Virus record (IMG/VR): IMGVR_UViG_2713896798_000017
DNA length: 46,614 nt
Direction: 5' to 3' (one strand)
Source: a virus
Lineage: Duplodnaviria; Heunggongvirae; Uroviricota; Caudoviricetes
Positions 21,001-24,000 of this stretch are shown here, one piece after another. The position numbers were made by a program. Positions within the stretch are counted from its first letter, which is position 1, and each line of letters begins with the position of its first letter.

Positions 21001-24000
21001 CTCTCCGTGTTTAACGCGCAGTGCCATGGTGGCAGTGCTGCAGATGTGCCGTGGATTTGTGGTGACACGACGTATTACTGGAAAAATACATACGCTACCC
21101 AGTACGACACCGTGTACGGCGGGTATAAAAACAGGGAGAGTGAGGGCGTTTATTTTGTGCCCTTCATGACAGACGGTAACGGCGTCAATACCGCCACTAA
21201 CGCGCCGGCAGAAGATCCGGATATTCCGGCATCAGGATATTACGGTGCGGCATCGAGAACGAATGGAAACCAGGTATCATCAAACCGCCCGACACATTTC
21301 AGTTCATGGGCGCGCAGGAGCATTATTCCGGATCGTCTGGCAACCGCTATTCTGAACGCAGCCGGGCGCACCTCAGCCTTCATCAGTGGTAAGGCACCGG
21401 AAATCAAACCCTCGCCCGGCGGCAACACGCCATCGGGTCCGTCTGCAGATACGTCCGTTCGCACAATCTCCCTGCTGCCGGCAGCCGGAGAGGCTGCTGC
21501 GCAGGGCTGGAGCATTAAGGATGGCGGAATTCAGTTGTCAGATGGTGTATTTAAGATCACCAAGCAGAGCAATAAAACCTGGTCCCTGACGCATCCGGTG
21601 GATGACGCAATTACCCTGCTGACACAGGGCGGCAGACTGACCTGTAAGTTCCGCCTGTCAGGCGCACTGACCAACAATCAGTTCGGGCTGGGGATTTATC
21701 TGTATACGGATGCTCCCGTTCCTGATGGTGTGGCGATGACGGGTACCGGTAATCCGTTCCTGATGTCGTACTTCACTCAGACCACTGACGGCAGAGTGAA
21801 TCTGATGCATCACAGGAAAGCCGGAAACACGAAGCTGGGGGAGTTCGGCGATTACGGTAACGACTGGCAGACGCTGGAGCTGGTGTTCACCGCCGGCAGT
21901 GCCACGGTTACTCCGAAACTGAATGGAGTGGCTGGCCCGGCATTCCAGGTTATAAAAGACAGTCTGACACTGGGACTGAATGCGCTGACGCTGACGGATG
22001 TTACAAAAAATGCAGCGTATGGCGTTGAGATAGAAAGTCTGGTGCTGGAGATAAATGCACCGGCAGCATAATAAAAAAAGAGCCAGCGACTGACCTGAAA
22101 GAAGACGCTGGCTAAAAGGCCTTATATGTTTGTAGAGACTTATTTTTCACAGACAGCAATGATGCCTGTCAATATATTATCAATATGCGGATTGTTTCAG
22201 TTACAGATGCTTTATTAAGGAAAAAAACAGCCAGCACTGACTTTCGGTGGAGAGGTGCTGGCTCAGAAGGATAGTTGGATTTCACATGATACTTATGCCT
22301 GGCGGTATATTTTCTGACAGACAGTGACGGGTGTTGTCAAGATATTGTGTCATTTATAACCTGAATCAGGGGGTGGCCGGAATGTTATCTGGCATTTTTA
22401 GCAGAGCCTGAATGCCATAATCACGGCTCCCGGAGTTGGCCGTCAGTGGGTGACACTGGCGGCTTTTTTGTTTTTCTTTACTTTCATTTTCTGTCGGCGG
22501 TGACGGAGACATACATCAGATGGAAAAAATCACAACAGGTGTGTCATACACCACGTCAGCGGTGGGGACGGGATACTGGTTACTGCAGCTGCTGGACAAA
22601 GTCTCTCCGTCCCAGTGGGTGGCAATAGGTGTGCTGGGAAGTCTGCTGTTTGGCCTGCTGACGTATCTGACTAACCTGTATTTCAAAATCAGAGAGGACC
22701 GTCGTAAGGTGGCGCGGGGAGAGTAGTCGATGAATAAACAATACGAACTGGTTGTAAAATGAATATTTCTAACTGAAAAAACGTTCCATGAGGTAAGAAA
22801 AGGTCACAGGCAATCAATAACAGGACGTGATGAAAGACCCTTGCATTTGTGCGCTTTCTCTTTAGATAGCAGCAGATACTGAAAATCTGAGTTGTCGGGG
22901 AGTCAGGGATACAGCTGTGCAAGAGTTGGTCATTGTGATTCCATTGAAATCCTGTATGCCATGAAGGGCAGGATTTTATGGCTACCTGAGCTTTGGTGAT
23001 AGTAAGTTGAAAATTCGCATTTTTTGCTGACATGCGTAACGAGAATCCCATAAGCAGGGAGGACTTAATTCTTCATTAACCCATGCGTTGATATTATGTT
23101 TCAGCCGTTGAAGCATCAGCGGTGTTAATGTTGTGGTAATAATATCCAGCGTTTTATGTGAGATCTTACCGTAAGGGTCTGCAAGAATGCTGCTTGTTGC
23201 TTCGTTATTATCTGCCATCAGAAGAAGTAACTCTGATTTAACGTTTTCTGTCATTAGTTGTAAAAATCTTCTGCGCAAACTTTCTTTACTGTTCATTTAT
23301 ATGGCTTCATTTGTTGTAATCTGCTGCGTCTCAAGGGATATGTTTATGAGAGCGACCATGAGTGTTGGATTATATACCTAACATATCAAGGGATTAGAAA
23401 TCGATAAATCCCCATGAACGAAAAAATAAAATACGGCCTGTCGGCTGCCGTTCTGGCGCTGATTGGTGCAGGTGCTTCTGCGCCTGAAATCCTCGACCAG
23501 TTTCTGGATGAAAAGGAAGGTAACCACACCACGGCATACCGTGATGGTGCGGGGATCTGGACCATCTGCCGTGGTGCCATTCTGGTGGATGGTAAGCCTG
23601 TTATTCCTGGCATGAAGCTGTCAAAGGAAAAATGCGACCGGGTTAATGCCATCGAACGTGACAAGGCGCTGGCATGGGTGGAGAAAAACATCAAAGTGCC
23701 GCTGACCGAACCCCAGAAAGCGGGGATCGCGTCATTCTGTCCGTATAACATTGGCCCCGGTAAGTGTTTCCCGTCGACGTTTTATAAACGAATTAATGCA
23801 GGTGATCGAAAAGGTGCCTGCGAAGCGATTCGCTGGTGGATTAAGGACGGTGGCAGAGACTGCCGTATCCGTTCAAATAATTGCTACGGTCAGGTCTCAC
23901 GGCGTGACCAGGAGAGCGCGCTGGCGTGCTGGGACATCGACAGATAGCAGAATATTTTCCTGAAAAATGACGTTGGCCAACGCGGGTGGATAACACGAAA

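Follow-up and report, generated by a model that had tools for sequence, protein, structure and literature searches.

The window analysed here, the whole 46,614-nt stretch of phage DNA in IMG/VR record IMGVR_UViG_2713896798_000017, contains an esterase gene followed by a lysis cassette, and it is the spacer between them that concerns us. The esterase (20221..22071, plus strand) is an ORF of 616 aa of the prophage sialic-acid type (SASA/NanS-p-like), with DUF1737, SASA and DUF6645 domains (Pfam PF03629, PF08410, PF20350). Downstream on the same strand lie the class II, phage 21-type holin gene S (22520..22726; PF04971), the endolysin gene (23414-23947; PF00959) and Rz (24226-24750; PF03245). The Q gene (15432-15812; PF06530) is found about 6.3 kb upstream of the repeat units described below, and the interval is occupied by a CAAX-protease-like gene, an IS element, an AraC-like gene, three tRNAs and the esterase gene. 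With a match to STnc100 at 19808-19998, the gene order reproduces the published synteny of PasD/STnc100, esterase, PasA and holin. The spacer also has short ORFs, one of 30 aa on the plus strand and two, of 38 and 48 aa, on the minus strand; we set these aside as genes, since they are without support and an RNA explanation accounts for the conservation.

The preliminary description of this DNA reported two degenerate, hairpin-bearing copies of a unit upstream of S, and the self-alignment it proposed as a check bears this out. Aligned whole, unit 1 (22072-22219) and unit 2 (22220-22370) score z = 5.4 (global) to 7.6 (local) against dinucleotide shuffles, and only 1-6 of 618 pairs of adjacent intervals elsewhere in the window score equally well or better. 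The likeness is confined to two blocks, each present twice in the 46.6-kb window where shuffled sequences lead one to expect 0.00: AAAAAAA-N-AGCCAGC-N14-22-GCTGGCT (22073-22113 and 22221-22263), which holds a hairpin stem of 8 bp in unit 1 and 9 bp in unit 2, and a core, ACAGACAG-N10-TGTCAA-N-ATAT (22149-22177 and 22317-22345). The intervening 30-50 nt or so have diverged, and stringent local alignment recovers only the 5′ arm of the terminator. Tandem Repeats Finder returned no rows, the repeat being too degenerate for it, and its significance is therefore taken from the shuffled alignments and the block patterns.

What the first reading missed is the strand. A run of A residues preceding a GC-rich hairpin on the plus strand is, on the minus strand, a hairpin followed by a U-run, and it is on the minus strand that the units are to be read. 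The terminators of both units are predicted there, and in the phage 434 record OL657226 the homologous sites of both hairpins are annotated as minus-strand terminators, while the equivalent of 22438-22475 is annotated as a plus-strand terminator. Comparison of PasA, PasC and unit-1 variants reveals compensatory changes (C-G to U-A, A-U to G-C) at 4 of the 10 stem pairs.

By homology, unit 2 is a member of the PasA sRNA family, the RNA catalogued as EcOnc51. PasA of enteropathogenic Escherichia coli (EPEC) E2348/69 is an Hfq-dependent, Hfq-stabilised RNA of about 85 nt, validated by northern blot and RIL-seq, which is recovered in Hfq-dependent chimeras with mRNAs of both core and virulence genes; its targets share a motif complementary to the seed GCCAGCACCU (Pearl Mizrahi et al. 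2021; PMC8550237). The E2348/69 region 743254-743718 is 95.5% identical to window positions 22060-22525, and the published PasA coordinates, 743499 to 743415 on the minus strand, fall on 22305..22221, an 85-nt minus-strand feature. Its identity to E2348/69 PasA is 91.9% over nt 12-85 of 85 and 94.1% over nt 18-85, so that the homology spans more than 75% of the length of PasA. The last (3′) 45 nt are the same in both, and the 13 differences lie in the first 40 nt or so; as far as a comparison by description goes, this allele fits the common "PasA-2" variant (Zhu et al. 2026). The northern probe GCCAGCACTGACTTTCGGTGGAGAG corresponds to 22231-22255, inside unit 2, and the seed is present exactly, in the 5′ arm of the terminator (22221..22263, minus strand; stem AGCCAGCAC/GTGCTGGCT at 22229-22237 and 22255-22263, U-run 22227..22221). 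This terminator, a 9-bp stem followed by U7, is the 3′ stem-loop and poly-U tail of the PasA family, and the placement between plus-strand esterase and holin genes, antisense to both, is the family's location. The 3′ part of unit 2 is identical to the EcOnc51 Hfq-CRAC peak in prophage Sp12 of the O157 strain Sakai, whose spacer differs from that of the window by 1 nt. The RNA as a whole folds no better than its shuffles (z = -0.5), with clear structure only in the terminator. A putative promoter block precedes it (22309..22345, minus strand: ATATC-TTGACA at 22340..22335, N10, CTGTCTGT, then CA-GAAAAT with the -10 at 22314..22309). Its geometry is poor, with a 20-nt spacer and a weak -10, and since the 5′ end of PasA has been reported to be a processing product (Zhu et al. 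2026), the true start site of unit 2 is uncertain.

The esterase gene may itself be a target of PasA. Its last codons contain CTGGTGCTGGAG (about 22039-22050), the motif targeted by PasA in RIL-seq and listed for the E2348/69 esterases in the supplement of PMC8550237. Duplex prediction with RNAduplex is uninformative here, with 50-67 of 300 shuffled targets scoring as well as the esterase 3′ end against either sRNA, and the pairing thus rests on the published motif. Any regulatory role for PasA or unit 1 is putative and draws on Hfq-dependent chimeras only.

Unit 1 would encode a shorter minus-strand RNA of about 66-68 nt (22073..~22140, the 5′ end being predicted), consisting of UCUCUACAAACAUAUAAGGCCUUUU followed by a Rho-independent terminator (22073..22113; stem AGCCAGCG/CGCTGGCT at 22081-22088 and 22106-22113, U-run 22079..22073) whose U-run adjoins the esterase stop codons. 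It folds at -16.5 kcal/mol (z = -3.4), and its sequence is exactly that of the EcOnc52 Hfq-CRAC peak in Sakai prophage Sp4. In EPEC, RIL-seq chimeras named escD::pasA.E2348C_0688.IGR end at 743267-743294, which is the unit-1 terminator. Upstream lies a putative promoter block (22143..22177, minus strand: ATATA-TTGACA at 22172..22167, an 18-nt spacer containing CTGTCTGT, then TG-T-GAAAAA with the weak -10 GAAAAA at 22148..22143). The block is intact in Sp4, where an IS629 element lies 24 nt upstream of the -35. The preliminary description had allowed that the repeats might be small RNA genes, and with unit 2 a PasA homologue matching the EcOnc51 peak and unit 1 matching that of EcOnc52, this alternative is the one that held, on the minus strand. 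Identical or near-identical sequences elsewhere show both RNAs to be Hfq-bound in lysogens (Hfq-CRAC in Sakai; RIL-seq in EPEC); with CRAC, reads may have been assigned to the wrong copy where a prophage sequence is present several times. The locus is already known, holding two published sRNA genes, PasA/EcOnc51 and its neighbour EcOnc52.

Unit 1 is nevertheless not simply another PasA. With blastn, PasA and unit 1 share only a 15-nt terminator match (E = 0.67). Membership of the PasA family would call for an alignable body and the same seed; in unit 1 only the promoter block and the terminator arms align and the seed position reads GCCAGCGUCU; with that sequence, unit 1 would have a different target set. 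Unit 1 is best called a diverged paralogue rather than a PasA allele, and from its sequence it looks like a tandem paralogue of pasA with its own putative promoter, which is the modest new point of this analysis. About 680 of the 5,426 complete E. coli genomes carry both units, at a median of 3 copies, and the same two-unit arrangement is found in E. albertii. Unit 2 accounts for 2,191 copies in 679 of these genomes and unit 1 for 2,299 copies in 677, with no copy of unit 1 annotated; the promoter and body of unit 1 are at least 99% conserved in 615 records. Some plasmids carry unit 1 alone, as IS-flanked remnants of the esterase 3′ end, and these matches hold no information on function.

A third element of the spacer reads in the other direction. 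The strong terminator previously noted just before S is confirmed in sequence as an intrinsic terminator on the plus strand (22438..22475), with an 11-bp stem GGCCGTCAGTG/CACTGGCGGCT, the loop GGTGA and then TTTTTTGTTTTT; the GC-rich stem, short loop and T-run directly 3′ are those of a Rho-independent terminator. The stem-loop (22438-22464; 11 pairs, 7 of them G-C, loop 5) folds at -22.8 kcal/mol (z = -3.2), and the T-run stops 44 nt before the S start codon (22520). Among 70 related IMG/VR loci with a P21-type holin gene, 64 have an equivalent terminator between -45 and -54, counted from the holin ATG, with many sequence variants, and the position is kept whatever lies upstream. In 933W-type relatives both units are absent and the esterase, the terminator and S are kept. 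A comparison with the Q-S regions of phages 21 and 82 had been suggested, and neither is among the matches listed (60 of 427) in a holin search of the phage collection. From its position and from lambdoid biology, we infer that 22438-22475 ends the esterase/moron transcript and separates off the lysis cassette, a predicted insulator role; no other element here would have to be read through by Q-modified polymerase.

The preliminary description had also raised the possibility that the units are duplicated late-promoter or tR′-like modules of the plus strand, as their position inside the late operon, just before the lysis genes, might suggest, together with a TTGTCA-N17-TATAAC promoter-like element in unit 2. 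The hexamers are indeed present on the plus strand (22334-22339 and 22355-22360), but they are separated by 15 nt and not 17, and the pair is absent from the output of the promoter scan. The plus-strand hairpins are preceded by A-runs and have no T-runs after them; Q lies 6.3 kb upstream with several genes between, which is not the arrangement of a pR′/tR′ module; the 933W-type relatives do without both units; and RNAs of the minus strand have been detected experimentally. A plus-strand module is contradicted by these observations, and we give it almost no credence. The same hexamers could instead drive a third sRNA, a plus-strand RNA of about 105 nt (22370-22476) divergent from pasA and ending at the strong terminator. 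That segment folds well (-43.7 kcal/mol, z = -3.5), and plus-strand RNA of the pasA-holin spacer does appear in EPEC RIL-seq chimeras. The plus-strand fragment recovered there (743494-743512, about 22300-22318 of the window), however, lies upstream of the putative promoter, whose 15-nt spacing is poor, and it is the first RNA in its chimeras, as is typical of an mRNA, which fits the 3′ UTR of the esterase. No Hfq-CRAC peak was called on the plus strand of the Sakai spacer, and a third sRNA seems to us improbable.

The remaining alternative accepts pasA and regards it as the only gene, with unit 1 serving as a back-up terminator that catches read-through and its promoter block as an inactive relic of duplication. 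The sole published reading of unit 1 in EPEC is of this kind: 743264, equivalent to window position 22070 at the unit-1 terminator, is given as a "minor" PasA 3′ end, that of a 236-nt read-through form (Pearl Mizrahi et al.; PMC8550237). The weak -10 of unit 1 agrees with it, and the Hfq peaks and RIL-seq chimeras, lying at the 3′ end, would look the same for a read-through RNA or an independent one. Yet the TTGACA of unit 1 is perfect and its upstream flank AT-rich, with a spacer of 18 nt and a TGn motif, and the EcOnc52 peak begins 8 nt past the -10. EcOnc52 was, moreover, called in Sp4, a prophage in which unit 1 is cut off from any pasA by IS629. The northern probe used in the published work recognises unit 2 specifically and could not have detected a separate RNA of about 66 nt, and the promoter and body of unit 1 show conservation of at least 99% over 615 records. 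We regard a single gene as unlikely, if worth keeping in mind.

We favor, with considerable confidence, an explanation in which two sRNA genes in tandem occupy the minus strand of the esterase-holin spacer, in convergent orientation to the Q-dependent late operon, and a plus-strand terminator shields S. Unit 2 would belong to the PasA family (EcOnc51) and unit 1 would encode the EcOnc52 RNA. In each unit, a promoter block (ATATnTTGACA-N10-CTGTCTGT-GAAAA) would lead into a short body of variable sequence, closed by a terminator (AGCCAGC…GCTGGCU with its U-run). Esterase/moron transcripts would end at 22438-22475, with a 3′ UTR of some 400 nt antisense to both sRNAs; the plus-strand terminator would keep unmodified polymerase out of S-R-Rz in the lysogen, and all three terminators of the spacer would be passed only by Q-modified polymerase from pR′. 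Each of the two sRNAs is a perfect complement of the late mRNA and of the esterase 3′ UTR. Against this explanation one may set the two weak -10 elements (GAAAAA and GAAAAT), the 20-nt spacer of unit 2 and unit starts that are predictions.

Comparison with known prophage RNAs places the two units more closely. PasA of E2348/69 prophage PP2, like EcOnc51 of Sp12, shares with unit 2 the esterase-holin locus, antisense orientation, terminator, probe site and seed. EcOnc52 (in EPEC, pasA.E2348C_0688.IGR) has the same sequence and position as unit 1, adjoining the esterase stop codon, and was previously uncharacterised as a gene of its own; our literature search found no paper with a main-text mention of EcOnc51 or EcOnc52. 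PasC, from E2348/69 prophage PP5, is of the same family and has the same position. In its 5′ half it is like unit 2 (81% over nt 3-49), while its terminator 5′ arm and the bases before it (TTTTAGCCAGCGTC) match unit 1; its locus has a single unit directly adjoining the esterase stop, and its loop is different. PasC has the look of a mosaic built from unit-2-like and unit-1-like modules, a copy of neither. The AgvB and AsxR RNAs (Rfam RF02702, RF02703) are likewise short Hfq-binding sRNAs, convergent in the late-operon moron region of lambdoid prophages, with a conserved 3′ terminator part, a variable 5′ part and stems of the GCCAGCG/CGCUGGC type, but they lie upstream of the esterase, between it and a moron CDS, whereas our units lie between esterase and holin. 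Their models gave no match at the gathering threshold anywhere in the window and none at E up to 10 in 21900-22800; sub-threshold Rfam matches in the region are to eukaryotic snoRNA models, which we discarded as noise, and no family covers it. We know of no sponge activity, such as that of the AgvB/AsxR anti-sRNAs, for PasA or unit 1.

Neighbouring paralogous sRNA genes whose promoter and terminator parts are conserved while their bodies have diverged are familiar from OmrA/OmrB and PrrF1/PrrF2. Those are core-genome genes with much higher body similarity, whereas our units can be aligned only in the promoter and terminator blocks. Such tandemly duplicated pairs are cited in a 2026 preprint, which denies that pasA copies arose by duplication in tandem (Zhu et al. 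2026); our reading of unit 1 runs contrary to that statement. As a more tentative proposal, to which we give slightly less than even weight, unit 1 could be an independent Hfq-binding sRNA gene, a tandem pasA duplicate in which the promoter block and terminator architecture persisted, the body became a new one and GCCAGCGUCU took the place of the seed GCCAGCACCU. Tandem duplication, with unequal recombination between units, might then be how the PasA/PasC family diversifies, PasC being a mosaic of unit-2 body and unit-1 terminator, and the two sRNAs with the plus-strand terminator might form a second safeguard against leaky holin expression in lysogens. An observation made from sequence is tied here to experimentally detected prophage sRNAs that are unannotated in RefSeq and have no Rfam family. 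The pasA locus would be a two-gene tandem array in most of its carriers, its second member overlooked or folded into a "minor isoform", and BLAST with PasA by itself misses unit 1 in analyses of copy number and evolution.

In lambdoid phages generally, Q-modified polymerase reads through an intrinsic terminator to express S-R-Rz. The terminator at 22438-22475 resembles lambda tR′ in being an intrinsic terminator inside the late operon, probably for read-through under Q; unlike tR′, which directly follows pR′, it sits 6.6 kb from Q, downstream of the morons and at the 5′ edge of the lysis cassette. The cassette of phages with a phage 21-type holin is almost always preceded by a terminator of its own, and this bears on how a lysogen can express its morons and still not lyse.

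The 448-nt spacer between the esterase gene and the holin gene S contains two copies of a repeat unit, as the preliminary description had proposed. A terminator-like block, AAAAAAA-N-AGCCAGC-N14-22-GCTGGCT, occurs exactly twice in the 46.6-kb window (22073-22113 and 22221-22263), as does a core block, ACAGACAG-N10-TGTCAA-N-ATAT (22149-22177 and 22317-22345); shuffled sequences give an expectation of 0.00 for each. Aligned as wholes, unit 1, which adjoins the esterase stop, and unit 2 score z = 5.4 to 7.6 against dinucleotide shuffles, and only 1-6 of 618 other adjacent window pairs match that score. 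Tandem Repeats Finder did not detect the repeat of units 1 and 2, owing to divergence between the blocks. The repeat is nonetheless confirmed, and so is the terminator before S (11 pairs, loop of 5, T-run, -22.8 kcal/mol, z = -3.2). The 17-nt promoter spacer described earlier was an error; TTGTCA (22334-22339) and TATAAC (22355-22360) are 15 nt apart.

On the plus strand each unit presents an A-run and then a GC hairpin, so that the minus strand reads a hairpin followed by a U-run. A terminator scan called the unit-1 hairpin on the minus strand, and in the curated record of phage 434 the homologues of both unit hairpins are minus-strand terminators, the third hairpin being a plus-strand terminator. 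On the minus strand both units run ATATnTTGACA, N10, CTGTCTGT, GAAAA(A/T), a short body, AGCCAGC…GCTGGCT and a U-run, an arrangement expected of small-RNA genes, here convergent with the late operon. Of the earlier interpretation, the small-RNA genes and the terminator stand; the strand does not, and we reject late-promoter or tR'-like modules because the U-runs lie on the minus strand and the units match published sRNAs.

The window from 22060 to 22525 is 95.5% identical to positions 743254-743718 of E2348/69 (NC_011601). In that strain PasA has a major form of 85 nt on the minus strand, 743499 to 743415, and a minor form of 236 nt with its 3′ end at 743264; the northern probe was GCCAGCACTGACTTTCGGTGGAGAG, and the entry carries the remark "homologues in EHEC (EcOnc51/EcOnc52)" (Table S6 in Pearl Mizrahi et al. 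2021, PMC8550237). Transferred to the window, the major form becomes 22305..22221, that is, unit 2, with 91.9% identity over nt 12-85; the probe has an exact copy at 22231-22255, the seed GCCAGCACCU is intact, and the 3′ end of the minor form falls at 22070, in the unit-1 terminator. Two Hfq-CRAC peaks of the Sakai strain, EcOnc51 in Sp12 (2237479-2237555) and EcOnc52 in Sp4 (1181998-1182075), have been reported (Table S2 in Tree et al. 2014, PMC4104026). With sequences taken from the Sakai genome, the first is identical to the 3′ part of unit 2 and the second to unit 1 (TCTCTACAAACATATAAGGCCTTTTAGCCAGCG…CTTTTTTT), and the full-length Sp12 spacer differs from that of the window by one base. 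The gene order in the window is exactly the synteny published for PasA: PasD/STnc100, esterase, PasA, holin/lysozyme (Zhu, Shabalina and Storz, bioRxiv 2026). These matches and this synteny place the locus in the existing literature; by sequence, it is PasA/EcOnc51 plus EcOnc52. RefSeq leaves it unannotated and Rfam has no family for it.

PasA is made from the prophage in lysogens, is scarcer without Hfq, and ranks among the accessory-genome sRNAs richest in RIL-seq partners, core and virulence genes included; its targets share the motif CUG-N-UGCUGG, complementary to a seed that lies in the terminator's 5′ arm (PMC8550237). Zhu et al. (bioRxiv 2026) regard the seed's position within the terminator stem as unusual and the 5′ end of PasA as probably a product of processing. 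The neighboring esterase gene carries the target motif as well, within its final codons (CTGGTGCTGGAG in the window, about 22039-22050). Chimeras such as escD::pasA.E2348C_0688.IGR have ends at 743267-743294, within the unit-1 terminator, and in these chimeras this RNA takes the second position, which is typical of an sRNA in RIL-seq. The literature reports no regulatory outcome for PasA or the unit 1 RNA.

The only interpretation of unit 1 in print is that it is transcribed by read-through from PasA. The weakness of its -10 element favors this interpretation, as does the possibility that CRAC reads were mis-assigned among repeated prophage sequences. We think it somewhat more probable that unit 1 is a gene independent of pasA, with its own putative promoter. 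The promoter block has a perfect TTGACA with an AT-rich flank upstream, an 18-nt spacer and TG-T-GAAAAA, and the EcOnc52 peak starts 8 nt 3′ of this last element. The Sp4 copy, in which EcOnc52 was called, has no preceding pasA unit, and IS629 lies 24 nt 5′ of its unit-1 -35. The predicted RNA of 68 nt is more stably folded than shuffled sequences (z = -3.4), and unit 1 is conserved at 99% or more in 615 records. The published northern probe recognizes unit 2 alone and so could not have revealed a small RNA made separately from unit 1. At the Sp4 locus (NC_002695.2, 1182010-1182200) IS629 has replaced both the holin and the pasA unit. The window, which matches O157 PV15-279 at about 1.171 Mb, appears to represent this Sp4-like prophage without the interruption.

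Several E. coli genomes, of O157:H7 and other Shiga-toxin-producing strains, have prophages with a 100% identical spacer; identity is 98.7% in phage H-19B and 95.5% in phage 434, phage YYZ-2008 and many Stx1a phages. We examined 80 IMG/VR loci with the same holin; 65 of them, those extending 600 nt or more 5′ of it, were classified. Two units as in the window are present in 9, a single PasC-like unit adjoining the esterase stop in another 9, and a single PasA-like unit, its stem compensated (AGCCAGUAC/GUACUGGCU), in 1; 20 have a 933W-type spacer of 146 nt without such a unit, and 21 lack the esterase gene. The remaining 5 (L021, L028, L045, L047 and L049) carry a different sRNA-like module on the minus strand, with a TTGACA-N17-TATA(A/T)A promoter, a body of ~60 nt and a GCCAGCG…CGCTGGC terminator adjoining the esterase stop, which may be a further unnamed sRNA type. 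PasC, a relative of PasA from E2348/69, resembles unit 2 in its 5′ half and unit 1 at the start of its terminator (TTTTAGCCAGCGTC), and one IMG/VR locus joins a PasA body to a PasC terminator; such mixed combinations indicate that modules have been shuffled between prophages. In eight terminator variants RNAalifold keeps 10 pairs, 4 of them with both-sided compensatory changes. E. albertii, the only other species representative with the exact unit-1 body string, also has the two-unit array. Unit 1 has the appearance of a pasA paralogue that arose in tandem and then diverged, with promoter and terminator kept and body and seed altered. Zhu et al. (2026) state that tandem duplication is not the source of pasA copies; unit 1 would not have been within reach of their search. 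The tandem paralogy of unit 1 is the sole point at which we go beyond the literature, and it is a modest one. Pieces flanked by insertion sequences on two E. coli plasmids of ~94 kb (L086, L087), holding either the esterase 3′ end with unit 1 (92% identity) or part of unit 1 with unit 2, appear to be remnants of prophage late regions. Nine loci (L009, L020, L030, L059, L068, L073, L077, L078 and L080) have minus-strand units about 670-690 nt 5′ of the holin, with a GTTGACAAT promoter and a CCGCCAGCG…CGCTGGCGG terminator, which by published description are like AgvB/AsxR-type anti-sRNAs.

The window is late-region DNA of a lambdoid prophage of E. coli, with transcription running along the plus strand. 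The Q antiterminator (15432-15812, PF06530) is followed, within 15958-19453, by a CAAX-protease-like gene (PF02517), an IS3-family insertion sequence (17398-18668) and an AraC-family regulator (18740-19453); then come three tRNAs (19482-19731), the SASA-type esterase of 616 aa (20221-22071, plus strand), the phage 21-type holin S (22520-22726), endolysin and Rz. The interval from the tRNAs to the esterase contains no stx genes. Because the insertion sequence sits between Q and the tRNA cluster, the late transcript must traverse it on the way to the esterase and lysis genes. Neither unit hairpin stops plus-strand transcription, so the esterase message must extend about 400 nt, antisense to both sRNA genes, to the terminator before S; plus-strand RNA across the pasA 5′ region was seen in EPEC RIL-seq (PMC8550237). 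That terminator ends 44 nt 5′ of the S ATG. Among 70 related loci encoding a holin of the phage 21 type (IMG/VR, L006-L085), 64 have an intrinsic terminator that ends 45-54 nt 5′ of the holin ATG, whichever gene stands upstream; there are 18 distinct terminator windows, their arms varying and their pairing kept. From established lambdoid biology, the terminator before S would bar polymerase lacking Q from S-R-Rz in the lysogen, and Q-modified polymerase starting at pR' would pass it. A plus-strand sRNA spanning 22370-22476 is a weak candidate; the segment folds well but has a poor promoter and no supporting Hfq peak.

Between the tRNA cluster and the esterase gene, an STnc100 match (19808-19998, plus strand; Rfam, 138 bits, E = 2e-30) occupies the position of the PasD/EcOnc05-type sRNA in EPEC and EHEC prophages; its alignment with PasD2 of E2348/69 is weak (78.6% over 42 aligned positions). 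An A-run and GC hairpin at 19999-20031 look like a terminator when read on the minus strand, and the published northern probe for EcOnc08/21/42, AATAATATCCGACAGTAATCACTCTGCGCAATAGC, matches exactly at 20075-20109. A minus-strand sRNA of ~271 nt probably lies at about 19999-20270; it would converge on STnc100 and run antisense to the 5′ end of the esterase gene. The 687-nt gap between holin and endolysin (22727-23413), where Sakai Sp12 has a YdfR-family gene, has long open reading frames on the minus strand only (120 and 104 aa, without Pfam match); it is 100% conserved in many O157 genomes, annotated there as "hypothetical protein". The same prophage also encodes the DicF sRNA (4435-4486, minus strand, 77 bits) and a hok/sok toxin-antitoxin module (13246-13570, plus strand; sok 107 bits, Hok PF01848).
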